Part shown: positions 23,728-50,827 of the stretch, one piece after another
Position numbering within the stretch: position 1 is the first letter of the stretch
How the letters are laid out: the number at the start of each line of letters is the position of its first letter
Assembly: GCA_013239625.1 (NCBI GenBank)
Contig: MU053216.1
Coordinates: 1,118,001-1,182,000 of the forward strand
Length of the DNA stretch: 64,000 nucleotides
Source of the DNA: Lama guanicoe
Lineage: Eukaryota
Direction of reading: 5' to 3'
Notes under the pieces: generated by a model
What the model saw: only the letters and a program-made list of their open reading frames with translations
Databases searched by the model: none
Told to the model about the DNA's origin: nothing
Program-made: the position numbers and the translations under genes

Positions 23728-24312
<585 letters not shown>

Positions 24313-24483
24313 TTAAAATACATTTTGAATTTTTTTTCCTGTACTACAAGCTAACACATATTCACTGTGGACACATTCGGAACAGACAGGAAATCAGGAG
24401 GAGGAATCGAAGCCAAGCACAATCTAACCGCCCACCGACAACCACGGCTAACATTTCGGGGTGGAACCTTGCAGACATTTCTA

Positions 24484-25311
<828 letters not shown>

Positions 25312-25617
25312 TCATTCACTTTGGCTCCTAAGTTCGATGCCCCAGGACAAGGACAGAGTGGGGGCTTTTGGAAGACCAGGTGGTGGTCCTCATTTCTGAG
25401 TTCGAGAAACCCCTCCGGGGCGGGGGCTGGGAGACACCACCTGCACCCCGGGTGAGGACCACAGACCGTTCTCCCCACTGCTGTCTCAAGCGATGTGGTG
25501 GTGGTGACCATCTGCACTCACTGACCCCAAGTGAGGAACAAGTGGAGTCCGAGGAGGGCGTGGGGCAGAGCAGTGATCCCCTGGACTCTCCCTGGGCCCT
25601 CCTCCTTCCTCCCTTCA

Positions 25618-26127
<510 letters not shown>

Positions 26128-26724
26128 TTAAGGGCCCCGCATGTCACATACAGACGTCTGGATTCCCCCTCTGAGCCATGAGCTGCTGTTGTAAGGTTGG
26201 AACAGGAAGTCAGAGTCAGATCTAGATTCACATGGCGAGGGTTGGGGGCTGAGGACCTGATGGGAGTGGGGACAACTCATGGGGCGGGAGTGGGGACCAG
26301 CCCGGTGCCCAGGCTCAAGTAGGGATGGCCTGGGGCCCCTGCAGTAGTCCAGGCAGGAGAGTGTGGCGGCCTGACCCTGACCAGGGTTGGGGGCCAGTCC
26401 AGCTGCCTGATGTCTGTGCCACCAACTCCCATGAGACCCTCAGCACTGGGCACACTAGTCCCATGGGGATGGTGACGGTGACTTACCCACAGGATTGTCT
26501 GAGGACTCAAGAAGTTACCAATATATGGGGAACACAGAGAACAGGGCCCGAGACAGAGCAAATGCTCGGTGTGTCTTAAATATTTTTGTCATAATGACCA
26601 TCGGCATGTTTATGGTCTAATATTTAAGGACATGTAATTTAGGGGTAGATCTGGGTGTGCTTCTGGCTCTGCCACCTATGAGCTTCCTGGACAGATGTTG
26701 ATGATGCTGGTGGTGGAGATTCTA

Positions 26725-26965
26725 ACAACAGCAGTAATAGTAACGATGGTGGGTAAGACGCATGGCCACTTGCCATCTGCCCAGCACTGTTTATGTGCTT
26801 TCAAGTTTTAATTCCGTGAATCCTCAGAACAAGCCTTTGAGATAAGTTACTATTATTACCCCCATTTGATAGACGAGGATGTCGGAACACAGAGAGGTTA
26901 AGATACTTGTCCAAAGACACACAGCTTGTGAGTGTGACATCAGAGTTTGAATCCAGGCCACCTGT
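26725..26965. mobile_element. MIR SINE
   Basis: Core: attattacccccatttgatagacgagga...acagagaggttaagatacttgtccaaagacacacagct...tttgaatccagg. Confidence 0.88.
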
Positions 26966-27352
26966 GCGTCTCACCACACGCTGGGCTGCTCTACTACACG
27001 TACAGAGACCGGTGGCGCTGCCTGAGGACTCTCCTGAGCCAGACACAGGCCAGGTGTGCGCACAACATGCACCCTGAAGTCCAAGGGCATTGCCCCAGCC
27101 CCTGGGGGCCAAGGTTTAGAGGTGCAGTACTGGAGGCTACCACCAGAGGGAGTCACAGATGCCAGCAGAATGGCTGCCCAGCGGCCAGGGGAGGGCTGCC
27201 CCTGCCCGGAGGACTCCCTCCTCCCTTCCTCACCTGCCTGATTTCCAGTACAAGCCCAGGTCACTGACTCGGGGCCAGAGGGAACCAACCGGGAAGAAAG
27301 GAGAACCACACAGCTGAGTCGGCCCCCACTCCAGCCCACTAGGTGTGCTCAC

Positions 27353-27441
27353 CTCAAAGTAGACAGGCACGCGAACAGTGTCCCCAGCTCTGACCGTCAT
27401 CGAGTCCTTCATGGTGGCGTCCATGAGGAACTTGGGACAGA
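27353..27441 (-). CDS. IGFN1: IGFN1 exon 20 (VCPKFLMDATMKDSMTVRAGDTVRVPVYFE)
   Basis: ttcag|TC acceptor, GAG|GTGAG donor; 89 bp, phase 1-0. Confidence 0.94.
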
Positions 27442-28009
27442 CTGAAACACGCAGGACGGCTCATCACCTCCTGGTGCAGGTGAGCCCCAGCCCCCGGTCA
27501 CCAACCAGGCAGGGCTGGAGGGGGCGCCCAGCCAGCCTGGTGATGATGGACGGGGGCCCTGTGGGAACTGGAGAGGGGGCTGGAGGGGACCGCGGGGAGC
27601 TGAGCGCAGGAGTGGGAGGGGTCCAAGAAGGAGCAGGTCAGGGAGAGCCTCGCGTCAGGCCGGAGCAGAGGAGGACGGTGCGAAACCAGGCCAACTCTTG
27701 CACTTGGTGGGTGAGGCAACTACCCATGGGACCCCTGGAGTCAGGGGCAGAGCCAGAACCAGGCTCCAGGCTCTGGACAGCAGAGCAGGGAGAGCTTCAC
27801 TGCAGGTATGTCTCCCCCGCGTGACGCAGGGACAACTGGGGTCTGTTAGGATGGCCCAGTGTCAGCTTGGCCAAACACAGGGTAGCTGTTCCAGCAATGA
27901 GGGCCCCAGAGCAAGGGCAGCCCCCCTCCCAGTGACAGGGCTGTGGCGCCTTCTGCTCTGGCCTGAGCGCGCGGGCTGAGGGCGGCCTGCTCAGGCCGTG
28001 CTTGCGAAG

Positions 28010-28215
28010 CAGCACAGCCCTGGAGCCTGGGCTCTGGGCTCAGCCACCTGGCTCAAACCCTGCTCTGCCACGTACCAGTGGTGAGCCCCAGGGCAAAGGA
28101 CCTCCGACCTCAGTTTCCTTGTCTGTAAACTGGGGACAGTATTGACCTTGCATGATTGTCATGAGTTATAATGAAAATGCATCTCCCCTGAAAAGGGCCT
28201 GCCTTGCCCACTGCC
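28010..28215. mobile_element. MIR fragment
   Basis: ctctgccacgtaccag...cctcagtttccttgtctgtaaactgggga. Confidence 0.65.
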
Positions 28216-28241
28216 CAGATCCTACCCCCGACACTTCACTA

Positions 28242-28682
<441 letters not shown>

Positions 28683-29962
28683 CTAGAGACCCTCTGGACA
28701 CTCGCTGGTTTCTGTGGGCGGCTGGGGATTCCTTTTACTCAGGGACTGGTCTTGCTCTGGGCTTCCCTGATGCCCCTGCCTGGACCCAGATCCTTCCTCC
28801 GTCCCCAGGATCTTCTGCAGTCTACACCCCCATCCCAGCTCACCTCCTCCAGGAAGCCTTCCCTACCTCCTTCCACTCATTTGCCAGCCTGCCAGCCCCC
28901 TTCCCCAACAGCCCTTCTGTAATTCCTGAAATCTGGGATTTTAGTTGATGAGTCGGTAAGTCCTTAGGTTCCAAGATCCTTGAAGACTAGAATTCTGTAT
29001 CTTTTTGTCCTGAGCTGTAAGCTCCTAGCCTAGACTGCCTTGTGGGCACTCAGTCCATACTTTGTGCTCTTTACCTTAGAATGGCAACGATTGCTGTGCA
29101 ACCCCCCCCCCCCCCGCCGAGGGCTCAGGACAGAGGGCTGATGTGTGTAAATGGCTCTGTACACTGCACAGGGTCCAGGGCTCTGGGCTCCAAACCTGGG
29201 GATCCACCTGCCCGGCCCCCAGCCCCCCCGGCTCTCTCCAGGGCCCACGGCCTCTTCCCCAGGGCCTGGCTGACACGGGAGGTTCAGGAACGGGCTGCAT
29301 CCCCGTCCCTGAGTGACTGGCTGGTCACTCAGGCAGAGAGGAGGGGTGCACGGAGCCCCATTTGCCTTGGAGGGAGGCTTTGATGGGTGTGTTTGTGGAA
29401 AGGTATTCTCTGCTCACGTTTGGGAAATTTGGATCAAACAAAATTGGGGAGGCTTCTTTACTGTAGGACCTGTCAGGGCCGCGTTGACCGCGGACCTCCT
29501 CTGCTGTCCCTGCTGCCCTCGCCACACCTGCGGTGCCTCTGGGTGCCTGGTGTTCCCCAGACAGTGGGCAGGGCGGTGCTGCTCTAAACCAGAAGTTCCT
29601 GAAGGATTCACCTGGGTCTTGGCACGATGCCAGCCCCTGGCAGGTGACGAGCGGTCACTCCGTGGACACAGAATGGGTGGTGAGGCTCTCCCATGACACC
29701 CCTCCCCGTGGGGTGACGACCCCTCACTGGGGTGAGTGGATGCTCCCAGGACTGGGACCGAGTGAGCGGAGTCATCTAGGGAGGGGCACTTGGAATTCCC
29801 ACTGTGGGGCCCCCGGCCTGTCTGATCTCAGTGTAGGGGCTGAAACCTCCCCGGGCCCCTAAGCTAGCTGCAGGGCCCTTCCACATTTACCTCGCAGCCC
29901 TCCCGACGCTTCCTCAGGGACTGGTCCTGGCCGGGGGCCTCCCGTCCCCTCCCACTGGCTTA

Positions 29963-30235
<273 letters not shown>

Positions 30236-30822
30236 TCAGGGCTGGGATCCCTGTCTGGCTCTGCCGCGGACTTGCTGGGATGTCTCGGGCAAGCGCCTTA
30301 ATCCCTCTGGCTCTCTCTGCCCTAGAGCTGTTGGAAGAGCGCCCCCAGTCCCCTTCCCTCTTTGCGGAGATGTGAGGCCATGAGAGGCCCCGCCCGGCGC
30401 CCACCCAGCCTGCCCAGTGCCCGAGCCCCTTCTTTCTCCTGCAACCTGGGCTTGGGCTTTTCTGAGTTTGTTCTGGTCTCAGAAGGTGGTTCCTTGGGAT
30501 CTACGTAGTGGGGCAGGGACACCCCCCTCCCCTAGTGTATGGACAAGGAAGCTCAGATTAGGCAGAAGAGGGAGCTGCCCGGGGTGGAGGAGAGGGTCCA
30601 GGGGTTCCCTGGCTTCCATCCTGGGACTGTGTTAAACCAGGGTCTCCCACCCCCGCTGTCACTGACATTCTTGTGCGGGGAGAGGCAGGGGTTGCCCCCC
30701 CCCCGTGTTGGGGGATGGGCCACTGCATCCTGGCTCCTTCACATGAGAGGCCACCCCCATCTTTCTGGTCTTCGGTCAGCCCAGAATTGCTGCACGCTGC
30801 TGAATGCCCCCGGGGCGAATCA

Positions 30823-31176
<354 letters not shown>

Positions 31177-31573
31177 CTACACACGGTCCCTTCCTGGGCA
31201 GTGTCAGGGGCCTGAGCCGGCCTGCAGTTTGGGGGCAGGAGTGACAGAAACAGGGAAGCACGTGGCCAGGGGTCTAGCTCCCACACTGAGGTCCCTCAGC
31301 CCGGTCCCCTAGGAGACACTCCAGCTGGGGTCATCTGCTGGAGGATGATGCCAGGCCCGCCCAGGGTCCTGAGAGAGTGGCTCTGCTGGTCCGCTGCTGC
31401 CCCACAGAGCCACAGCCGGGAGGAGGCCCCACGCGTCGGGCCGGCTGCTCCAGCCGCCGGGGCCCGGCGGGGCTGGGGTAAGGCGTCTCACGGTGCCCTC
31501 CGATGGGTGGCCTCGAGTCGCGCAGCCTCTCGGCAGACCAGCCTGGCCTCCGGGCACCGTGGGGGGCCCCTCA

Positions 31574-32173
<600 letters not shown>

Positions 32174-32288
32174 TCAGGGCTGGGTCCCACCGCCCACCCC
32201 GGCGACCACCCCAGGGCCTGGTGTGTTAGCTGCAGGGAAATTTCCCCGTGGCGGGAGCCTGGCCCTTCATCTAAACTGCCTCTTCCTA

Positions 32289-33114
<826 letters not shown>

Positions 33115-33204
33115 TTACGGACACAGAGGAGCTGGTCATCCCACCCCTGTCCAGCTGCTCCTGCCACCAGCCTGGGCCTTTACTGATGCAACTGAGGGAA
33201 TGGA

Positions 33205-33400
33205 CTGACCGCTCATCATGTGTCAGGCTGGTGCCAACCACCACCCCCCTGGCCTGTGTTCAGTGCCTCATTAATGGTTCCAGTGACCTGATGAAGCAGG
33301 TACTCTGAGTTGACCCATTTCACAGATGGGGAAACCAGAGGCCATGTCAGTGGTTAATGGCCGAGCTGGGGTCAGCCAGGTCCAGCTGTGCTCTGAAGCA
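33205..33400. mobile_element. MIR fragment
   Basis: cccatttcacagatggggaaaccagaggc. Confidence 0.6.
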
Positions 33401-33813
33401 CTGTGACGTACACCCTCCTGAGATGACGACTAGAAGGGGGCTGCTCAGAGAAAGAAGAGCCTGTCCGGCTGGGCTGAGAATATAGCATTTGTACAGGACC
33501 TTGAAGGACAGGTAGACCTCAGTGGGGGCTGGGACAGGAAGGCAGTTTGGGTGGTAGAGGGTGGGCAAGGGGTGTGTTTAGGGAGGAGTGAGTGGGGTAC
33601 CCACCCATTTTAAAATCACTTTTATTTTAAGCACACCAAGTTGTTGGCTATTTAAGCTTCTCCCCGAGTAGGTGTGTTGGTACAACAAGGAATGAAAGCT
33701 CTTTGTTGCAAAGCCCCTCCCCTCTCCTTCCCTCCCCTCCCCCCCCCTCCCCTCCCCTCCTCTGCTTCACCCGTCCCAGCCCGCAGACTGGTCCGTGAAG
33801 CCGGGGGCAGTAC

Positions 33814-33938
33814 CTTGACACCATCCTTAAACCAGGCTCCAGGCCCCAGGTCACGGGTGAGGGTGCAGGAGAGCACGGCGTCCTCCCCCTGCTGCACCTC
33901 CGTGTCAGCCAGGCCCTGGGAGAAGTGGCCTGCGGGGC
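33814..33938 (-). CDS. IGFN1: IGFN1 exon 13, copy 2 (identical duplicate)
   Basis: Same 125 bp and same splice sites, offset by 213 bp. Confidence 0.85.
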
Positions 33939-34026
33939 CTGGGGAGACACAGGGGAGAGTCGGACTCCCCTCCTCTGCTTCTCCCCTCCCAGCCCGCAGA
34001 CTGGTCCGTGAAGCCGGGGGCAGTAC

Positions 34027-34151
34027 CTTGACACCATCCTTAAACCAGGCTCCAGGCCCCAGGTCACGGGTGAGGGTGCAGGAGAGCACGGCGTCCTCCC
34101 CCTGCTGCACCTCCGTGTCAGCCAGGCCCTGGGAGAAGTGGCCTGCGGGGC
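34027..34151 (-). CDS. IGFN1: IGFN1 exon 13, copy 1 (GPAGHFSQGLADTEVQQGEDAVLSCTLTRDLGPGAWFKDGVK)
   Basis: ccccag|GC acceptor, AAG|GTACTG donor; 125 bp, phase 1-0. Confidence 0.88.
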
Positions 34152-34634
34152 CTGGGGAGACACAGGGGAGAGTCGGGGCCAGGCACTCAGGGATCCCCCA
34201 CGGCCCAGCCTCCTAGGCCACGGCCTGTGCGGCACCCTGGGAGGCCACATGTCCTGCCACCTGGGCTCAGCCGGTGCCAGCAGGGCCAGACCGCCCATTT
34301 TTCTCTGCAGGGCCTAGGCTGGTGCTGGAGATCTGGGGTGCAACGTAAGTGATGGGCCTTGGAGTCACGCAGAGGGAAGTCTGGGTAACCCTCAGAGAGT
34401 TAGTTCAGCAACTCAGTGCTTTGGACATAGGGTATCAAGACAGACACCCAGGAGGGTGCTGAGCCCCGCAGCCGGGATCCCACCTGCACAGGAGGAAGAG
34501 GCTGCTTCCTAAATTGGGAAATGAGCACTGGCAATGGGAAGCACTGATGGGGGCAAACTCCTGGGGCTGGAGGCAGGTTAGGGACCGGCCCAGGCACCCC
34601 AGTGTCCAGAGAGTGTCCCTGGAACAACACCTAC

Positions 34635-37600
34635 CTCGAGCCTCCTCGGAGAAACCACCAGCGCCAGGCTTGTGTCTGGATCTGGGACTGCGGGCGGCAT
34701 CGCTTCTCTGGCCATGGGCGTCCAACCCGCCCTCTTGGCCGCCTCTCCTGCTGCCAGCATGGCTCGGGGGCTCCCCCGGGCACACCCCATCCTCTCCTCC
34801 AGGCAGCTGCTCCAGGCCTCTCGTTGCTGGTCCAACCTCGACCCTTGACCACGTCTGAGTCCTACTCCTGAATGGGCCGGGCCTCCTTTCTGGCCCGCCA
34901 GACTCCTCTGCACCACGGCCCTCATGCTCCTTTAGGGCACCTGGACCTTGGGCTCTGTCATCCTCAGCCTCCAGGGATGCCTGCCCCACTAGGGACCCCC
35001 TTCCTCCCCTCTGTCCTTTTTCCAGCTGCGAGCCAGGCCCCTGGATCCCCCCTGATCTGTCTGCAGAGTCTTTTCTGCCAAGGAGACCACCTAGGCCCTC
35101 CCTGGCTCCCTGGCGCCCCAGACCCCCAGGCTTCTGGGTGGGGTCATTCTCCCCCTCCGCAGAAGCCCCCCTTCTCGGGACACCTGCGTCCCCTGGGCCG
35201 CTAGCCCTGCCCCGTCCCAGACCAGAAGCTTTGCCATCCAGAAACCCTGGGCTTTGCCCACCCCAGCCCCCAGAACCCTCAGGCCCTTCATGGGACCCCC
35301 CAAAAGTGGCATCTTCCTCCTGCCGGGAGCTTGAAACCCTGGAGCCTGGGGGCCCACCCCTGGCACCCGTGCTTCCTTGGCCAGACCCCTGGTCTTCCCA
35401 GCCTGGGCCCCAAGAGTCGCTGATCCCACGCCCATCAGCAGACCCTAGCATTGATTCGCCCATTTTCCTGGGCATCTGGCCGCTGTCTAGACTGTGGCCT
35501 GCACCTGCTGAGCCCCCCACCCCTGCCCCAATCCTCCTGCCTCCCAGGGGTGTGGTCCCAGGACCCTGAGGTCCCAACCCACCCTGGCCAGTTGCTGGAT
35601 CCCCGTCTGCTGTCCCTGGCCCTGCTTCCCAGAAGTCAGGATCACGCTGTGATTCCAGAGCAGCGGTCCCTGCCCAGGTCTTGCCCTGCACTGCCCCCGG
35701 ACCATCAGGAAACCCAGAAGCTCCCACACCCCTTGCACGGCCTGCAGCCCTGCCCTTCTCACTGGGAGCCTCTCTGTACCCAGGGGACTCTCGGAGTCCA
35801 GAGCCCTTCTGCCGCCCTCTGATGCCTGACTGTCCCTCAGAGCCAATAGCCCCCAGCGCCTCAGGGCTGCCCAAGGAGCCAGAGGCCCCCAAGCCACTTA
35901 CAGAGCCCTTCCCATCCAAAAGAGCCTGCGGTCCTTCGTGAGTGCCCTGCATCCCCAGGCCCCTGGGGCCGTCCCCCTGTGCTGTGCCATCTGCGGTGCC
36001 CACTGTTCCAGCCTTCCTGGAGCCCAGCCCAGCACCTGCCCCTCCCATGAGCCCCGTCCCGCTGCCCCTCTCTGGACCATCCTTGGGGCCTGTGCCACCA
36101 TAAGACCCCTCTGATGCTGACCAGTATCCTGGCTGGTGCCCCCTGGCTTCTTGACCTCTGGGTCCACCCTCATGTCCCATTCCAGCCAGTGAGTCTGTTA
36201 CTCCAAACCTCCCTGAACCATCTCTGCAGCCCATCTCACCCCCTGGGCCTTTCCCACCAGATCCTCTCGAGTCTCCCCTATAATCTCCTTTACTCCCTGA
36301 CCCTATTCCTCTAAGACCCCCTGATCCATCCCTGTAACCTGCCTCACCCCCTGCCCCTACGTCCCCAGAACCCCCTAAACCATCCCTGTAACCAGCCTCA
36401 CCCCTTGACCCCATTCCTCTAAGACCCCCTGAACTACCCTTATACCCTGCCTCACCCCCTAACCCTACTTCCCCAGAACCCCCTACACCATCCCTGTAAC
36501 CAGCCTCACCCCTTGACCCCATTCCTCTAAGACCCCCTGAACTACCCTTATACCCTGCCTCACCCCCTAACCCTACTTCCCCAGAACCCCCTACACCATC
36601 CCTGTAACCAGCCTCACCCCTTGACCCCATTCCTCTAAGACCCCCTGAACTACCCTTATACCCTGCCTCACCCCCTAACCCTACTTCCCCAGAACCCCCT
36701 ACACCATCCCTGTAACCAGCCTCACCCCTTGACCCCATTCCTCTAAGACCCCCTGAACTACCCTTATACCCTGCCTCACCCCCTAACCCTACTTCCCCAG
36801 AACCCCCTACACCATCCCTGTAACCAGCCTCACCCCTTGACCCCATTCCTCTAAGACCCCCTGAACTACCCTTATACCCTGCCTCACCCCCTAACCCTAC
36901 TTCCCCAGAACCCCCTACACCATCCCTGTAACCAGCCTCACCCCTTGACCCCATTCCTCTAAGACCCCCTGAACTACCCTTATACCCTGCCTCACCCCCT
37001 AACCCTACTTCCCCAGAACCCCCTACACCATCCCTGTAACCAGCCTCACCCCTTGACCCCATTCCTCTAAGACCCCCTGAACTACCCTTATACCCTGCCT
37101 CACCCCCTAACCCTACTTCCCCAGAACCCCCTACACCATCCCTGTAACCAGCCTCACCCCTTGACCCCATTCCTCTAAGACCCCCTGAACTACCCTTATA
37201 CCCTGCCTCACCCCCTAACCCTACTTCCCCAGAACCCCCTACACCATCCCTGTAACCAGCCTCACCCCTTGACCCCATTCCTCTAAGACCCCCTGAACTA
37301 CCCTTATACCCTGCCTCACCCCCTAACCCTACTTCCCCAGAACCCCCTACACCATCCCTGTAACCAGCCTCACCCCTTGACCCCATTCCTCTAAGACCCC
37401 CTGAACTACCCTTATACCCTGCCTCACCCCCTAACCCTACTTCCCCAGAACCCCCTACACCATCCCTGTAACCAGCCTCACCCCTTGACCCCATTCCTCT
37501 AAGACCCCCTGAACTACCCTTATACCCTGCCTCACCCCCTAACCCTACTTCCCCAGAACCCCCTACACCATCCCTGTAACCAGCCTCACCCCTTGACCCC

Positions 37601-40600
37601 ATTCCTCTAAGACCCCCTGAACTACCCTTATACCCTGCCTCACCCCCTAACCCTACTTCCCCAGAACCCCCTACACCATCCCTGTAACCAGCCTCACCCC
37701 TTGACCCCATTCCTCTAAGACCCCCTGAACTACCCTTATACCCTGCCTCACCCCCTAACCCTACTTCCCCAGAACCCCCTACACCATCCCTGTAACCAGC
37801 CTCACCCCTTGACCCCATTCCTCTAAGACCCCCTGAACCATCCTTATACCCTGCCTCACCCCCTGACCCCCCCTCCCCGGAACCCCCTACACCATCCCTG
37901 TAACCAGCCTCACCCCCTGACCCCACCTCCCCAGAACCCCCTAAACCATCCCTGTAACCAGCCTCACCCCTTGACCCCATTCCTCTAAGACCCCCTGAAC
38001 TACCCTTATACCCTGCCTCACCCCCTCACCCCACCTCCCCAGAACCCCCTAAACCATCCCTGTAACCAGCCTCACCCCTTGACCCCATTCCTCTAAGACC
38101 CCCTGAACTACCCTTATACCCTGCCTCACCCCCTCACCCCACCTCCCCAGAACCCCCTAAACCATCCCTGTAACCAGCCTCACCCCTTGACCCCATTCCT
38201 CTAAGACCCCCTGAACTACCCTTATACCCTGCCTCACCCCCTCACCCCACCTCCCCAGAACCCCCTAAACCATCCCTGTAACCAGCCTCACCCCTTGACC
38301 CCATTCCTCTAAGACCCCCTGAACTACCCTTATACCCTGCCTCACCCCCTCACCCCACCTCCCCAGAACCCCCTAAACCATCCCTGTAACCAGCCTCACC
38401 CCTTGACCCCATTCCTCTAAGACCCCCTGAACTACCCTTATACCCTGCCTCACCCCCTCACCCCACCTCCCCAGAACCCCCTAAACCATCCCTGTAACCA
38501 GCCTCACCCCTTGACCCCATTCCTCTAAGACCCCCTGAACTACCCTTATACCCTGCCTCACCCCCTCACCCCACCTCCCCAGAACCCCCTAAACCATCCC
38601 TGTAACCAGCCTCACCCCTTGACCCCATTCCTCTAAGACCCCCTGAACTACCCTTATACCCTGCCTCACCCCCTCACCCCACCTCCCCAGAACCCCCTAA
38701 ACCATCCCTGTAACCAGCCTCACCCCTTGACCCCATTCCTCTAAGACCCCCTGAACTACCCTTATACCCTGCCTCACCCCCTCACCCCACCTCCCCAGAA
38801 CCCCCTAAACCATCCCTGTAACCAGCCTCAGCCCCTGCCCCCATCCCTCTGAGACCCCCCGAACCACTTCTAAAGCCTGCTTCACTGCTTGGCTCCCTCC
38901 CCTCAGGCCCAAGACCCCTTGACCTTCCTCCATAAGCTGTTTCACCTCCTATTTGCTGAGGTCCTGGAATTCCTGATCCATCCCCATAACCCAGCACTTT
39001 GCCTGACCCAGAAGCCCCCCAGCTCTCAGAAGGCATCCCAGCGTGAGAAGCCAGTGCCTTGGGGCGCCTGGCATCGTCCAGGTAGCCAGAGCCTGCTCTA
39101 GAGGCCCCGTCCCCATCACTCACTCTGCCTGCTGCGCTCAGGGGCCCTGAGCCCCCAGGGCCGTCTTTGTGGCCTCCTTCTCTGGAGGCTCCGAGGCCCC
39201 CGTGATCTGCATCCCGACTCCAAGGCCCTCCTCTTCTAGAGCCCCCTGGTTCAGCTCCTGCATGCCCATGGCCCTCCCCAGCAGTTCCCACAGTGACAGG
39301 GGACCCGAGGCCACCTCTACCCACAGAGCCTGCTGTCCCAGGACTCCCCAGACCACCATTGGGACGACGCCCTCGCACGGGGCCGGTGTCCCCCCCGCTT
39401 CCGGATACAGCCCTGGCCCCTGCACGCAGCCCAGCTTCACCCTCCGGCCCTCCGTCAGGGCCACCTGAGCCACTCTGGAGACTGGAAAGTCCCTCAGACC
39501 CGCTTCTGCCAGGACCGTAACCATCCTGGCTTCCAGGCCACATTCCTCCGAGCACCAGTGACCCATGCCTGTAACCAGCGCCCTTGTCAGATTCTGTCCC
39601 AGGCGCCCCAGAGGCCACTTGCCAACCAGCAGGACCAGATCCCACTCCTCCTGGCCCCCCTGAGCCATCACTAGCTGTCCAGGCTTGAGAATGCTGCGGG
39701 CTTCTAGAATCTTCCCCAGCCTCACCAGAGGCCCCTGCCGTCTCCCGGCCTGCCCTTCCCCTGAGCCCCTGTAGGCCCGTTTCCCAGCCCTTGGGACCCC
39801 CTGGACCCCCAGCACCTGCCTCCTGCAGTGAGCCCTCCCAGCCACTGCCTCCAGCTTCCCCCAGGCCAGTCCCACTTCCCCAGGCTGCCCTCGAGGCTCC
39901 TCTGCCCACTTTCCTGCTCAGACTACCCCTTCCCTCCATCTCATCCAGGCTGTCCCCCTGCAGAATCCTCTCCGTCCCTTCCCCTCCTGACCAAGACCCC
40001 AAGGGATCAGCCTGGGATCCCCGCAGGGCCTGCGTTCCCATCCCAGGTCCCAGCTGAGCGCCCCAGGGCCGCTCCAGGCCATGCCCGTCCAGTCGGCTCC
40101 CATGGTCCTGTCTGGGCTCCTTCCCTTCCCCGCTGCGCCCCCGTCCTCCCACCTGAGGATGCCCGGACCCTGCCTCCCAGCTTCCCGCCATGCCAGCATA
40201 TCTGTCCCCTTCTCTGTCTCTGCTAGCGTCTTGCTGCTGCCCTTCCGGGAGGCCCAGCCCTGATCCCAGGCCCTCCCTCTGCGGACGGGGAGCCCCTGGA
40301 AGGCTCCCGGCCCCACCTTTCTCTCTATGGAGCTGATCTTCCCCAAGAGGAGTGACTCTGCCCTCTTCTTCCAGGAAGCCCTCTCTTGCCTGCCCAGGGC
40401 CCCAGGCTGAGTCAGCTGCCTCCTCGACCTCCATCAGGGAGAAGCCGTGCCCACCCAGGCCACCTCTGTCTGGGCTGGCTGTGCGCCCGGATGCCAGCCT
40501 GGGCTCCTGGAGGGAGACCCCCATGGGGTCCTGCTCTCTGGGTCTCCCCTCCTCGCCTCGGACGCTCCTGGAATCTTCTGGGGTCTGGGCTCCCTGTGCC

Positions 40601-40649
40601 TGCAGCTGGCGGTCAGTGCTTGCGGCCAGAAGGCTTTTATCCTTCCCAG
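34635..40649 (-). CDS. IGFN1: IGFN1 giant exon 12 (Gly-rich disordered region), interrupted by 8 in-frame TGA codons
   Basis: aaag|CT GGG AAG GAT (AGKDK) start and CGA G|GTAGG end; 6015 bp, phase 1-1. ORFs 38782..40524 and 34435..37980 share one frame and are separated only by TGA-bearing repeat units. Confidence 0.88.
36300..38880 (-). repeat. Coding minisatellite: 108-bp unit (2 x 54-bp monomers; 36 aa MGSRGEAGYRDGVGGSGEVGLGGEAGYKGSSGGLRG), about 24 units
   Basis: 13 identical B units (ATGs from 37818 to 36414 at 108-bp spacing), a 162-bp transitional segment, and 8 A units carrying TGA. Confidence 0.97.
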
Positions 40650-41205
40650 CTTTGGTGAGAGGTCAGCGTCCCCAGAGAGAAACAAGAGAAAAGACCTGTT
40701 AAGTCAGGCCAAGACACCTCTGGCCTTGTGTGACCCTTGGTTTCCCCGGGAGAGAAGCAAGCTGACTGTCTCTGGAGGTGGCCAGACTGCTCCAGCTCCT
40801 TGGTGGGTGAAGCCCACCACCACCGCCCTTGTCCTGAACCTGCAGCTCACCCCACCCCCCACCAGGTGGTTGGTGAGGGCTTAAGGAGAAAACACAGAAA
40901 CCAAAAGTCATTTGCAACAAGCAATTGCATGGTGTTTAAAAATCACCTTGTCCCACTGCCTGGCTTACAAATGTCCTGGGGTCGCCTTGAACCGAGAACC
41001 CTAGGGGTGTAAGTGTTCTTTGGCCTGACCCGGGGTTTCCCATCCATCCTGGACCTGGGCACTGTCCCACGCCCCCCGGAGTAATCTGAGGCTCGGTGGC
41101 GTGGACACGCTGTGCAGGGGTGGGCTGGCCGTGAGGAGCCGGCACTGCAGTGGCACAGGATTAGATCCAAGGAGCCTTCCTCGCTCTCTGAGAGTGAAGG
41201 AGTCA

Positions 41206-41607
<402 letters not shown>

Positions 41608-42629
41608 TCAGCTGGGCGGCAGGACCCCGTGTGACCTGACACAGCGGGGCTGGGAGCTCAGAATCTCTGGCTCAGACCAGCTTAGCCACAGCTCCCTGTG
41701 TCACCTTGGACAGGTCACTCCTCACCCCAGGTATCAATTTCCCGCACATAAAATGAGGAGTTATAATTAGGTTATGAAGAATGAGCCTCTGGGCCTGGAA
41801 GCCTGTCGTTCTAAATCTGAACGTTCTATCTGGGGGCCAGGTAGGCACAGGAAGGAAGCCAGCGCTCTGAGCACAGGGCTTCACGCCTGTTGTCTGGTTA
41901 ATCCTCACCAGCACTCGGGGCAGGTGTGAGTGTTTCCCTTTCACAGGTAAGAAAATGGAGGCTTTCAAAGTTAAGCAGCTTGCCCCAGCCTTGCCCAGCT
42001 AAGAGGTGGTCCAGCCGGAATTCGCCCCTTGGGCTGGCTGGCCCCAAAGCCCCTGTTCCTTTCCCCACATCAAGCAGTTTCCAGGCGTTTCAAAGCACCG
42101 TCCCCGCAGCCAGGTCTGCTGGAGGTCTCCCCTCTCCCTCTTCCTCAGCCTTGACTGAGCCGAGTTCTTCATCTGCCTGTGGGAAGCGCTCCCCACCCGC
42201 CTCTCCTCCCTCCAAGGCCCTGGGGCTGGCAGGTGCTGGGGGCGGGGCTTGGAGCAGAAGGGGCAGGGCGGCAGGGGGGGATGGGGCCTGCACGGGCACC
42301 AGGGTGCCCGACCCAGTGGAGACTCTTGCTGGTGGGTTGTCCGAGAGCAGGCCCCATGCTGGCAAAGAGTGAGGCTCTAGAAGTTGTGGAATTAGTTGGA
42401 TTTGGCCTGAGAGTGAAGGGTTTTTGCAGGTGGTCTGTGACCCGGGTGCTCTCCGTCTGAGACAGACTCGGCGGAGCCCAGCCCACCATCAAGGAGCACA
42501 GACCTCGGACCGAGACTTGGAAAAGGAGTCATCACACTCTAGCCATCTGAGTAAGTGTTCCTCGCCCAACTGCAAGGGGGCCAGGCCACGTTCTCCCCCT
42601 ACCTCCATGGCACTGACACGAGCCCCTCA

Positions 42630-43070
<441 letters not shown>

Positions 43071-43304
43071 TTATGCAAGAGACACCGGAGACCGCTGAGC
43101 CGGCAGCCGGAGCGGAGCTGCTACCCAGCGGCCCCGAGAGGTTAGCGGGGGCAGGGAGGCGGCAGCAGTGGCCAGGGGGCCCGGCGCTTCCACTCATGAG
43201 GAGTAAGTGAACCACCCGCCACCTTCAAGGCGCCACGATCCCAGCAATCTGCACACACCCACTTTAGCTAAGCCGAGACAGACTGGCTTCTTGCTGAATA
43301 CGGA

Positions 43305-43926
43305 CAGATGGTCCCTGACTTGACAATGGTTTGGCTTGTTTTGCTTTGACTTTACGACGGTGCGAAAGCGATACACATTCAGTAGAAACCGTACTTGGAG
43401 TCTGGAATTTCAGTCTTTCCCAGGCTAGCGATAGTGGTGCTGGGCAGCCCCAGCCCCAGCCCCAGCCCCAGCCCCAGCCCCAGCCCCAGCCCCAGCCCCA
43501 GCCCCAGCCCCAGCCCCAGCCCCAGCCCCAGCCCCAGCCCCAGCCCCAGCCCCAGCCCCAGCCCCAGCCCCAGCCCCAGCCCCAGCCCCAGCCCCAGCCC
43601 CAGCCCCAGCCCCAGCCCCAGCCCCGGTCAGCCCCGCGCTCACGGGGCAAACCACCGATGCACGGAGAACCGCTCCGTAGCAGACAACCGCCTGGTTTCC
43701 ACTTTCGGTGTAGCAATTAACAGACTCCAGGAGACACTCAACTCTGTGATGAAGCAGGCTTTCTGTTGGGTGCCTTTGCCCAGCACAGGCTGGTGTGAGT
43801 GCTCCGGGCACGGCGACGGTCGCTAGGCTGAGCTATGGGGTTTGGTAGACTAGGTGTATTGAACGTAGTTTTGACTTACAAAGGGTTTCTCAGGATGTAC
43901 CCCCACCGTAGGTCGAGGAAGATCTG
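43305..43926. mobile_element. Tigger5/MER47-like TcMar DNA transposon, intron 9
   Basis: Imperfect terminal inverted repeats CAGATGGTCCCTGACTT...AGGTCGAGGAAGATCTG followed by TA; internal sequence resembles the recalled MER47/Tigger5 consensus. Confidence 0.8.
43445..43624. repeat. Perfect hexanucleotide microsatellite (CAGCCC)30, i.e. (GGGGCT)n on the IGFN1 sense strand
   Basis: 180 bp of uninterrupted repeat. Confidence 0.98.
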
Positions 43927-43934
43927 TATTAACG

Positions 43935-44200
43935 ATAGCTAACACTTAGCTGCCTGCTGTGTGCCCGGCACTGTTTGAGGGACCTGGGACACATCAGTGA
44001 ATAAAACAGAGTCCTGCCCTCTGGGAGCTACAGTTCTATGGGGAGACAGGGAAATAACAGACATCATGAATAAGTGCATAATACAACGTGTGTCAGACAG
44101 AGATGAAGCTGGGGGATAGAAAGGAAGGAGGCTGTGGGTCCAGAAGTGCCGGGATGGCACGGGGGCACAACAGCCCTGCACGAGTGTCTGGGAAGTGAGT
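43935..44200. mobile_element. L2 LINE fragment
   Basis: ctgtgtgcccggcactgtt...ctgggacacatcagtgaataaaacagagtcctgccctctgggagctacagttcta. Confidence 0.75.
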
Positions 44201-44799
44201 CAGCCACGTGGACGTCGGGGCAGAGCGGGGCAGCAGAGGGAGCAGCTAGAGCAAGGGAGTGGGGGTGGGGATGGGGGCGCAGTGTGGCAAGGCGGGGACT
44301 GAGGGGAGGAGCGAATCAGGCATTTCTCATTTTTCATCTCCATACTCCAGGAGATAGGACCTGTGCCATCCTCATGTCCCCTACCAGGGTGCCGAGGCAC
44401 AGGGAAGATGAGCATTTTGCTGAGGTCACACAGCCAGGAAGTGGTGCAACCTGGGTGAGTCTGACCACAGGACAGCGTTATACTTTGCTGCTGCCCTCCC
44501 CCACCCGGACCCCTTCCCGTCCCCAACCTGGCTGACATGCAATGACCCCTGGAGCCCATGCAGGGCTGTGTCTCGAGAGACAGCTCAGGTGGTAAGGGTG
44601 CACTTCTCAGAACCCTCTTTTGACTCCGTGCCCTGGCTGGAGAGCCTAGCTGCTCAGTGAGAGGTCGGAGGTCTCTGTGGACTGCCTTCACCAGGGTTTG
44701 ACCTGACCCCAAGCAGGAACTCGCGGGGAGGCAGGGCTCACCACCCGTGCTCTCTGCTGCCCCCACAGTTCCTCTCCCGGACCAGCAGCAGCCCTGTCA

Positions 44800-45063
<264 letters not shown>

Positions 45064-45497
45064 TCAAAGCAGGTGGGAGAGCCCGGACGAGGGGAGCCAG
45101 GCCCCTGGGTGGGAGGTTGGATGAACCACCTTCAAGCTGATAACATGGCTACTTTCAGGATAATGAAAACAAGCTGTTTTGTGTTTCCAGGGGAAAAGAA
45201 AATTAGACTTTTACTATGGTTAGATTAGACACAGGGAAGACCTCCCTACACAGTGTGTCAGAGGCTGGAGCTCCCTTCTCTGGAAGCCTTCAGAAATGAC
45301 AGGTACCCAAGGTCGGGTGATGGTGATGGACAACGCCGATGATGGTGGCAGCGGCCAGGAAGCCTTTCTTAGGCTAAGCGCGCCAAGTACACCCTCTCAT
45401 TCAACCTCTCGATTACCCTACCCAGCGGGTACCTGCAACATCCACCTCACAAGTAAGGAAACCATGGCCTGGAGGCCCTAACTTTTCCAAAGCCTCA

Positions 45498-45821
<324 letters not shown>

Positions 45822-46290
45822 CTAGGAGCTTCTCACCCGGGCCTGGTGCCCCCCAGGGGTCGTGGGGAGCTGCCCCTCTGCGTTGGAAGAAAGGGGCACA
45901 AAGACTGACCACTGCAGGGTCTGGAAGGACCCAGAGATGGGCGGGGTGGGCCTAACCACAAAGCCCCTGCTTTCCCAGGAGAGACTCCTGGATCTCAGGG
46001 CAAGGTGTCTTTGGGGGGAAGTTGTTCTGTTGCTCTAAAAATTTTTTTAAATTGCTGTTCTAGTGAAGTACTCCATTTTACAGATGAATAAGTCAGGACC
46101 TAGGGAGGGGAAATGATTAAGTTGAGGATACAGAGCTTATAAGTGGAGAGCTGGATCCCGAGCTCCAGCCCAGTTCCTCCCATCCACCACCAGAAGTCAG
46201 CTCCCCAGCACGTGTTGGGGGTGGAGGAGAGGGGAGCCCAGCGTACAGCAGGGGAGCCTCCCAACTCCCCACAGACAGGCCCAGACCCAC

Positions 46291-46336
46291 CTCTTTTTCA
46301 GCATCTTCCGGAAATCCATCAGCTCCTTCTTGAGGT
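46291..46336 (-). CDS. IGFN1: IGFN1 exon 7 (DLKKELMDFRKMLKKR)
   Basis: ttttctag|AC acceptor, AG|GTGGGT donor; 46 bp, phase 1-2; MyBP-C-like DFxxLLKKR motif. Confidence 0.93.
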
Positions 46337-46590
46337 CTAGAAAAGGAAGAGGAGTGAGGCCCCCGTCCCAGGGTGGGATTCCTTGGGGCTAACGCAGGGT
46401 GGGTTGAGGAGGGGCTGGAGGGAGGGCCCGAAGTCCGTGGCTGACGGCCGAGCTTTTGAAAGGGGAGCTCCTGTGGGCTGGTGGTGGCCCGTAAAGCACC
46501 TGTGAGGGCTTGGCCAGGTGGGGAGCACCCGGCAGGGAGCAGCCCATCCCCCCAACGACCACACAGAGATTTCTGACAGCCTCTACCTAC

Positions 46591-46635
46591 CCTCTTGGGG
46601 CTCCTTTTGCCTCTTCCGATTCTTCCGAAAGCCAA
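46591..46635 (-). CDS. IGFN1: IGFN1 exon 6 (VGFRKNRKRQKEPQE)
   Basis: cag|TT acceptor, G|GTAGGT donor; 45 bp, phase 1-1. Confidence 0.92.
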
Positions 46636-47039
46636 CTGGAGCATCAGGAGGAAAGGAGGGCGTGAATGTGGACAGCCAGGAAAAGAGGCAGAACACTTCG
46701 ATGGTCTCTGAGAGCCCGCTGAGTCCGGGCGCTGACCGCCCCACGCCCCTCTAAGGCCGGCGCGGCCCAGCAAGAGGGAGCGCAGGGCCAAGGGTCTGTC
46801 CACCATAAGCTCTGGTCCCCCAGAGTGTGCCCACAGAGGGGCTGACTTGATCACCATCTCATGTTGGGGTGGCACACTCCCATGTCTACAGGGCTGGGGG
46901 ATGCATGAATGGAGGGAGTGACCGCTGATGACCACAAGCTGACTGGCATCTGAAGGGGCAGCTGCCCTTCCCCCCACCTGAGAGCTCCCACTTCAGGGCA
47001 TAGGCCCGCCATCACCAGACATGTCCCCTGCAGAGGCTG

Positions 47040-47830
47040 GAAGGCTGCCCACTGGCCTTTTCTGGCTTCCCTGGCAACTGGGAGTGGCCCTGTGACACTG
47101 TTCTGGCCAATGAGGTGTGAAAGGAGTGTCTGTGGAAGTGTTTGCTTCCTTTCTTTTTTATTTTTAAAAATCATATTTTCACATTTTGTAAAAGAGCAGG
47201 AATAACTAAAATAAATGGATATTGTAAATCATGGTCTCATTTCAGAACCCTATTTTGCCACAGACGACCCGTTTGACTTTTGCGTTGGTTTCCTTCAGGA
47301 GACAAAATGCGTGTGCTTCTGTCTCCAGGAGGAAGTTCCCTAACGTAGGTTTCCTAAAACCTTGAAACTTTTGCTGAAGAACAAAGAAGGATTTGCTTTG
47401 TACAGAACAATATGAGTTTGACGCTCCTTCTGGGAAACGGCACCTGCTGGAGCTGCATCTATTTTTCCAGTTGCAAGTTTCTTTTTTTATTGAAGGATAA
47501 TTGATGTACAATTTTATATTAGCCTCTGCTTTCTTGATAAAAGGGCCAGGTATACCTGGGGGTGCTTCTCCACCTCTTCTGCTTGAATGTGGGTTCAGTT
47601 TGGGTCTGCTGCAGTTGCCCCGTGAAGACGAGGTTCAGAACCAACCACTAAATGCAGCAGAGCCGTGGGACGGAGAGCGTCTGGCTGTCCAGCGACAGCC
47701 CCGACCGTGGCTGGAACCCTGGGCGAACCCCAGGACCTGTTCCCACAGCTGGAAGGAGGTGGCTTGGCTTCTCCGGCTACTTGGAGGAGGGATCCTATTA
47801 CTTGTGGGCAAAAGTGTAACCAATTGAGAG
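47040..47830. mobile_element. Interrupted ancient ERVL LTR (LTR33/LTR16-like)
   Basis: ggagtggccctgtgacactgttctggccaatgaggtg... resumes at ctgctttcttgataaaaggg. Confidence 0.45.
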
Positions 47831-48290
47831 AGAAGAACTGCTTTCCAAGAGACGTTTACCTTCAATTACTTGCCGACAATTTAAAATTTTGGAAACACCG
47901 TGCAAACCAAAAAAACCCCAAAAACCGAAAACCAAAAACACAAAAGCACATCCGATTTGGCCTTTGTGTGCTCTGTTTGTCCCGTCTGATGCAGACCTGC
48001 ACAAAACAGCCTGTGTGTGGTGGCGACACTGGGGCCAAGAGAAGGAACCGAAGCCCCCTGAGTCAGCTGGCCGAGCGGGACTGGAAAGTTCCAGGCCCTG
48101 ACCTCGTTTCTCGGCGCGAAGAGAATATCCCTCAGAGCATCTGCAGGGGGCGCCCGCGAGCGGGAACCCGCTCAACCACGTGCAGCGGGAGCGTGGCGGA
48201 TGAAGCGCATGGCTCCGCAGCGGGCGCGGCACGACAGCTGTGGCCCTCCCCGCCCCCTGCCCCACCCGCCGCGTGGCCTGATTCCGCTCA

Positions 48291-48884
<594 letters not shown>

Positions 48885-49148
48885 TTAGTGCTCGTAAAAC
48901 CCCATAAAGGAGGTGCTGCCATTACCCCCACTGACAGATGCGCCCACAGGAGAACAGAGACGTGAGTGGCCTTCCAAGGCCGGGACGCTGGGCCTGGCGC
49001 TCCAACACAGGCACCCCGCTCCAGAGCTCGAGCGCAGTTCCACGTGTTCCATCAGCTCGCCCGCCCACAGCTGGCTCAGGCAGCCTGGAGTCCACTCAGC
49101 CCCAGCTGGGCTCTCTCTTACTCGCCCCTGGGGGCTGGAGACCTTCTA

Positions 49149-49502
<354 letters not shown>

Positions 49503-50035
49503 TCACCTGGCTTGCCTGCTCCAAGCCTGGGCTCGCAGAGGGAGCCGCACGCAGGTGGAGTGTCTGGGGGACGGGAGAGGGCTGGGGCGGGAGATGGGGA
49601 TAAGGGGCCTTACGGACTCTCCCAAGACGGGGAAGGTCGAGCCTTTTGTGGGTCCCACGTCCACTCTCTAGGGGGAACGGCGACCTCGGAAAGGCCTGGC
49701 TGTGATGCCCAAAGGGGCTGGTTCTGAGACGCAGGTTCCAGCCTCAAGGGAGAGTCTAAACTCTGTCCTTGGCCTGAATGCCTGGGGCTGCCCCCCTCAA
49801 GGACCCCCAGACGCCAGCTGGAAACATCTCAGAAGGGAAGGGCTTGGAGTAAAGACCCAAGGGCCCCCCACCCCTGTGGCAAGTGACACAGTTTCTCGTG
49901 ACTGTCAGGGGGACTTAGATTTACACACATAGGGGGCCAGTATTTTTCTCAGGGGAAATCCGTTGCAGGGACCTGTGTGGTGGAAGGAACACCAGCCTGC
50001 ACCCTCCCGCAGGTCCTGTTCCCAACCCTTCCCTA

Positions 50036-50827
<792 letters not shown>

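Follow-up and report, generated by a model that had tools for sequence, protein, structure and literature searches.

IGFN1 is a KY-interacting protein assembled from immunoglobulin (Ig) and fibronectin type III (FN3) domains, and a disordered segment of it is reported to be alternatively spliced out of the mouse variant IGFN1_v1 (PMC5493368). The stretch of DNA considered here, referred to as the window, comprises 64,000 nucleotides of the Lama guanicoe assembly GCA_013239625.1 (contig MU053216.1, positions 1,118,001 to 1,182,000) and carries the IGFN1 gene on its minus strand. It departs from the known gene in that the giant exon encoding the disordered segment holds eight in-frame TGA stops, the next exon is duplicated, and the junction used by v1-type proteins falls between GC..GC termini. 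The stops are present in the assembly, other animals read TCA at the position concerned, and the array of repeats that contains the stops is unusually uniform. The TGA block is specific to this assembly, and the explanation somewhat favoured below is that it arose as an artefact of repeat assembly or consensus calling, rather than as a private allele of the animal.

Several described systems offer points of comparison. Poison exons are conserved and regulated, and act through alternative splicing coupled to nonsense-mediated decay (NMD). The giant exon resembles them in being a coding segment of alternative use that would introduce a premature stop when included, but differs in that the stop seen in the window is missing from the other animals examined. 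In the frameshift of the MUC1 variable number tandem repeat (VNTR), a mutation in a single unit is hidden by a coding minisatellite. The likeness to IGFN1 lies in a disabling change placed among coding units so nearly alike that short reads and assemblers have difficulty in resolving them; the difference is that here the change is a nonsense codon displayed eight times, is unsupported by reads, and sits in an exon that is alternatively spliced. Homogenised or mis-sized tandem repeats in draft assemblies look like the window's identical blocks (7 and 12 units), which lack the variants seen in reads, and an older Camelus protein model (P0003) has a comparable uniform block; for the window such a cause is probable, as deduced from the contigs of other animals. 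The Camelus IGFN1 models (P0002, P0114, P0115, P0118 and P0003) share with the window, in the corresponding exon, an 18/36-aa GEAGY(R/K)...GEVG-x-GG repeat. In Camelus, however, S, L or A occupies position x in units of mixed composition, whereas in the window there are two blocks, each perfectly uniform, of which one contains the stops.

The stop-bearing block of the giant exon

The giant exon is bounded by an acceptor AG at 40651-40650 and a donor GT at 34634-33, and its reading frame on the minus strand is open from 40662 to 34438 save for the eight TGA codons (Table 1), each of which stands in the context GAG GTG GGG TGA GGG GGT GAG. A reading of the block in another frame was rejected, the remaining two minus-strand frames having 207 and 107 stops in 43500..32000. 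In these respects the sequence bears out an initial annotation made from the letters alone, which had given the position of each TGA (by the lowest base of the codon), the codon context, the exon length of 6015 bp, and a frame otherwise open over that length; no further stop occurs between 40662 and 34438. Its estimate of a product of ~1019 aa ending at the first TGA is likewise correct, with 397 residues encoded upstream and 622 within the exon.

The stops lie in a coding minisatellite with a period of 108, a multiple of three, and about 23 head-to-tail units, in which the TGA codons alone interrupt the frame. The codon equivalent to the stop is TCA in a transitional unit (37920-37918) and TTA in 13 downstream units, both as the initial annotation had read them, and GCA in the terminal unit. 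The 108-bp spacing of the stops is the repeat period because the TGA units are near letter-identical copies, and chance is not at issue: the eight stops represent a single unit type that is displayed eight times rather than separate events. GAG GTG and the residues DGL are shared by the TGA unit, the TCA unit at 37920 and the read contigs described below, the TGA unit being one C>G change apart from the others; the proposal that a serine codon gave rise to the stop thus fits, since the TGA unit looks like a derivative of the TCA type. On its coding strand the minisatellite is 51.5% G, with 25 merged stretches of G-quadruplex (G4) motif amounting to 1365 of 2651 nt, and each TGA forms the loop of a GGGG-TGA-GGGGG motif.

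It is extremely improbable that the stops are real but bypassed by an internal splice or by recoding of TGA. The C>G change would make a third GGTGAG in each unit, and a candidate donor GG/GTGAGG and a candidate acceptor TTACAG/G (slashes mark the putative splice points) would lie in the same phase, so that an intron could in principle remove the stop. However, the other two GGTGAG motifs of each unit are evidently unused in the long isoform, and the candidate acceptors have no preceding pyrimidine tract. Recoding to selenocysteine was rejected, as 0 Rfam matches, the selenocysteine insertion sequence (SECIS) families included, were found at gathering thresholds across all 64 kb.

Reads of other animals at the stop codon

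Public sequencing runs were searched with the repeat block 38026-38890, sampled as 17 words. Of 24 runs listed, 20 (from 9 studies) hold at least part of the block and 8 hold half or more of the 17 words. The best word share among the 20 holders was 0.59 (10/17), and the words of the TGA block were never complete; none of the 24 listed was an RNA run holding a stretch of the block. The TGA base is covered by 31 of the 168 distinct 31-mers of the query, and the probability of finding 10 or fewer of the 17 words is ~0.005 if a run holds the window's array together with the flank single-nucleotide polymorphism of organism B, against ~0.3 if it lacks the TGA words. Metagenome contigs scanned for exact matches to the codon context, the variable base being set to N, gave 0 matches.

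Four runs, X1 from organism A, X3 and X5 from two studies of organism B, and X12 from organism D, none of which is known to come from the assembled animal, supplied Logan contigs that were placed on 38690-39090, comprising the first TGA unit and 226 bp of unique flank. All four have the locus, since each covers this flank with 0-2 differences in 290 nt. At the second base of the first TGA (38783), contigs with TCA or GCA accounted for a depth of 27 of 27 in X1 (2 contigs) and 59.2 of 59.2 in X12 (5 contigs), while TCA accounted for 149.5 of 297.3 in X3 (3 contigs) and 164.2 of 240.3 in X5 (5 contigs). In X1 and X12, GCA is read in the contig that reaches in from the unique sequence downstream, and belongs to the terminal unit. 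Away from a contig end, the window's TGA base was in no row of the contigs of the four runs. In record 18 of X3 and record 26 of X5, both covering 38821-38771, the window's exact upstream context (ending in GGT TCT GGG GAG GTG GGG) runs unbranched into TCA, and a loose end in X12 reads Ser and then GGEAGYRDGV, as in the transitional unit.

The residual depth in X3 and X5 belongs to four contigs of 59-60 nt (records 15, 17, 23 and 24) that break off at 38787, four letters after the site. They form both arms of a bubble at 38757 (KGSS versus KGGS), and each has one mismatch whose place is unlisted. The summed depth of the bubble contigs in X3, 211, is close to that of the mismatch-free record 13 that they feed (225.8), and record 22 is the counterpart in X5. 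Because the contigs flow into record 13 or 22, the extra mismatch must lie within 38771-38787, an interval in which the stop/Ser/Leu codon is the sole site of variation, whether between units of the window or in Camelus. The simplest reading, deduced rather than listed as a result, is that the four records would carry TTA (Leu), as in the window's 13 downstream units. A simulation of k=31 unitigs from the window predicts that its array would give a 61-nt unitig at 38753-38813, with TGA central, and a 56-nt unitig at 38727-38782; neither was among the placed contigs of the four runs. Gaps, namely the contig upstream of records 15, 17, 23 and 24 and any contig with the window's contexts GAA GTA ... 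TTA or DGV, were not used as evidence, because some records are dropped by a filter.

These data bear on the proposal of the initial annotation that an isoform has been lost in the lineage, the giant exon having turned from a coding exon into a poison exon. Loss that is fixed or common in the lineage would be expected to place the stop in animals beyond one assembly, and is very unlikely: all four runs, from three coded organisms, have TCA in the same context, the best share in 20 holder runs is 10 of 17 words, the Camelus exon is intact, and the array that displays the stops looks artificially uniform. Only the assembly itself speaks for it; protein models from Lamini that are solely of the v1 type would fit as well, yet many species have only models of ~1250 aa. 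The annotation had also said that it would be overturned by reads with TCA or TTA at the eight positions, and this is what the contigs of the four runs hold, as reads of other animals and not of the assembled one.

Artefact or private allele

The make-up of the array differs between animals. By pattern count, KGSS occurs in 21 of the 23 K/R-type contexts of the window, MGSR in 22 of 23, and MGSG in none. In X3 and X5 there is an MGSG variant (38727 T>C) at a depth of 325.3 of 748.6 and 157.2 of 400.9, respectively, along with KGGS and KDGS, and KGSS, which marks the 3' half of the TGA unit, is minor in these two runs (records 15 and 23, where the depth is roughly that of the single-copy flank) and absent from X1 and X12. 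The read contigs echo the window's first unit, its Ser-then-GEAGYRDGV and KDGS contexts and its terminal unit, and leave the two amplified blocks un-echoed. Both the unit variants (KGSS, KGGS or KDGS; MGSR or MGSG) and the summed contig depth differ among X1, X3, X5 and X12, as in a VNTR. Over the SGGLRGMGS part the summed depth is ~3 times that of the flank in X1 and X12, ~16 times in X5 and ~27 times in X3, where summed depth is not to be equated with copy number.

Similar heterogeneity is found in Camelus. In a pattern count over the five models, the residue equivalent to the stop is S 11-27 times, L 7-20 times in four models (none in P0003) and A once, and never a stop. KGGS, KDGS and KGVS are among the contexts mixed in the recent Camelus arrays, in which MGSG outnumbers MGSR. 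The older model P0003 has 27 uniform 18-aa units of the S type, and the later P0002, P0114 and P0115 have a mixture of S and L; because of this disparity, the array can be said to be rendered very differently by different assemblies. The coding minisatellite of the IGFN1 linker thus differs in unit make-up between close camelid relatives.

An artefact of repeat assembly or consensus, for which there is a modest preponderance of evidence, would account for the block as follows. A unit sequence with a wrong or rare base in the G-quadruplex loop would have been propagated through a homogenised block during assembly or polishing; the animal would carry Ser or Leu codons at the eight sites, and its long IGFN1 isoform would be untruncated. 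Single-base mismatch errors are reported to be raised at G4 motifs in Illumina, HiFi and Oxford Nanopore data (PMC10519405). A second odd duplication, 0.5 kb downstream of the giant exon, was counted in favour of an artefact.

A number of observations weigh against this explanation. The read evidence comes from animals other than the assembled one, no listed run matching the block fully, and Logan contigs show presence, not absence, with a filter that drops some records and 28 placed records not displayed. The 2.4-kb array is free of indels and in frame and the other exons are clean, from which base-level quality appears good. The transitional unit keeps TCA although its context is the same for 11 bases either side, and a purely context-driven systematic miscall therefore does not fit. 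The TGA units form a coherent haplotype one base from the TCA type, as a unit first mutated and then amplified would give, and real minisatellites can hold blocks of identical units.

The same observations give some weight to a real private or rare allele, an alternative that is credible but doubtful. One TCA>TGA change (C>G) in a Ser-type unit would have been amplified by unequal exchange or slippage; the mRNA of the long isoform would stop after ~1019 aa and be a likely target of NMD, and the v1-type and C-terminal isoforms would be untouched. The single base that separates the TGA unit from a TCA unit sharing its GAG GTG and DGL is consistent with such a history, as are the indel-free array and clean flanking exons, and the variation of unit types and summed depth between animals makes private expansions plausible. 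Set against it are the contigs of the four runs, 0 of which show TGA away from a contig end, the 20 holder runs with at most 10 of 17 words, and the scarcity of KGSS in X3 and X5 and its absence from X1 and X12, against 21 occurrences in the window. In addition, the long open giant-exon models of many mammals suggest selection for an open frame.

Loss of the long form could nevertheless be tolerated, since the segment is spliced out in the Lamini models and, as reported for mouse, in IGFN1_v1 (PMC5493368), which agrees with the expectation of the initial annotation that isoforms avoiding the block would be spared. The v1 type, with ...STDRQLQ (40600) joined to SRRGGQ... (34752), is that of the Lamini models P0125 and P0240, and the whole repeat lies inside the 5847 nt skipped in this way. 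The same RQLQ/SRRGG junction is found in models from tiger, pig, gorilla and mouse. In the window the junction has non-canonical GC..GC termini, with no GT within 60 nt of its 5' side, and no canonical GT-AG or GC-AG intron yielding the modelled junction could be derived there.

In the collection searched, the Lamini IGFN1 protein models are of the v1 type only. Most of the mammals listed have an IGFN1 model in this length class, ~1250 aa and without the giant exon, so that the missing long Lamini model is not in itself a sign of a broken exon. There was no truncated Lamini model either, a search with residues 450-1000 having given 5 unrelated or weak matches among 7999 scored candidates.

The IGFN1 locus and the meaning of its repeat

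Judged by domain order and protein similarity, the locus is the minus-strand IGFN1 ortholog of a South American camelid. A Pfam scan of the 135 minus-strand open reading frames (ORFs) that lie between 8001 and 57514, out of 183 with 88 aa or more, together with exon-by-exon tblastn of the camelid models P0002, P0125 and P0240, gave the expected order Ig, Ig, THB, Ig, giant exon, Ig, Ig, FN3, FN3, FN3, Ig, FN3, Ig (Pfam I-set, THB and fn3; Table 1), with zero Pfam domain matches in the ORFs of the giant exon in the same scan. The best protein matches carry the source name IGFN1. The read-through protein of the giant exon (P0001, with X at each TGA) had 112 matches at E<=0.001 in a set of 8000 scored candidates; the best was Camelus IGFN1 P0002, with 85% identity over 97% of the query length, and the matches include long open giant-exon models in many mammals. 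The last Ig exon has 99-100% identity with camelid IGFN1, including Vicugna pacos XP_031531740 (P0240) and XP_072804355 (P0125). At the exon level in tblastn, the window comes close to full identity with P0125 and P0240 without reaching it, its similarity to Camelus being lower, and for this reason it is assigned to a South American camelid. Literature searches combining IGFN1 with alpaca or camel found no paper on camelid IGFN1 by title.

Table 1. Features of the IGFN1 locus, in positions of the window
Feature	Position	Strand	Basis and remarks
IGFN1 coding part within the window	23833..50413	-	Pfam matches on minus-strand ORFs; tblastn of camelid IGFN1 models P0002, P0125 and P0240
N-terminal domains	I-set Ig ~49.3 and 48.4 kb; THB 45.6 kb; Ig 41.4 kb	-	Pfam
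Giant exon, 6015 bp, disordered linker between the N- and C-terminal domain sets	34635..40649	-	Open frame, splice sites, similarity to Camelus P0002
Segment skipped by v1-type protein models, junction RQLQ/SRRGG	34753..40599	-	P0125 and P0240 align to 40650-40600 and 34752-34633
Coding minisatellite, 108-bp (36-aa) unit	36298..38864	-	Tandem Repeats Finder (TRF) rows of period 108; unit table
Block of 8 TGA units	38026..38784	-	Units 2-8 letter-identical; unit 1 differs at 3 bases at its 5' edge
TGA codons 1-4	38784-38782, 38676-38674, 38568-38566, 38460-38458	-	
TGA codons 5-8	38352-38350, 38244-38242, 38136-38134, 38028-38026	-	
TCA (Ser) at the equivalent codon of the 54-bp-shifted transitional unit	37918..37920	-	Unit table
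Block of 13 TTA (Leu) units	36460..37758	-	Codons 37758-37756 to 36462-36460; 12 units letter-identical and one variant
213-bp tandem duplication carrying the next coding exon twice	33752..34176	-	TRF 2.0 copies, 99%; 2 mismatches in 213
Copies of the 125-bp exon	34151-34027 and 33938-33814	-	Identical splice sites; both match the same Camelus residues
C-terminal domains	Ig 33.9 and 32.5 kb; fn3 31.8, 31.0/30.1 and 28.4 kb	-	Pfam
C-terminal end	Ig 25.8 kb; fn3 24.9 kb; Ig 24.0 kb	-	Pfam
(CAGCCC)x30 hexamer repeat	43445-43625		Perfect, 100% matches; inside an IGFN1 intron

The initial annotation had described every exon other than the giant one as intact. This stands in so far as the other coding exons align to camelid IGFN1 models with no stop or frameshift; it does not stand for the next exon, of 125 bp, which is single in camelid protein models and present twice in the window. 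If both copies were spliced in, 125 nt would be added and the frame shifted in every isoform with the C-terminal domains. The 213-bp duplication that carries the copies could be either real or an assembly artefact. A perfect hexamer repeat in one intron is a further feature of the locus (Table 1).

In summary, in-frame stops within near-identical coding repeats need confirmation at the level of reads before they are taken to indicate the loss of a gene or an isoform. With the stops read as an artefact, the real biology that remains is modest, namely a variable coding minisatellite in the IGFN1 linker. If the TGA block were instead a genuine allele, recently amplified and segregating in a South American camelid, it would be a natural knockout of the giant-exon isoform of IGFN1 only, with v1 and the C-terminal isoforms intact, and carrier animals could reveal the role of a long disordered linker in muscle. 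Stops that were both real and widespread would mean that, of a muscle protein associated with the Z-disc, one mammalian lineage had given up the giant isoform alone, which would be informative about the role of the linker.

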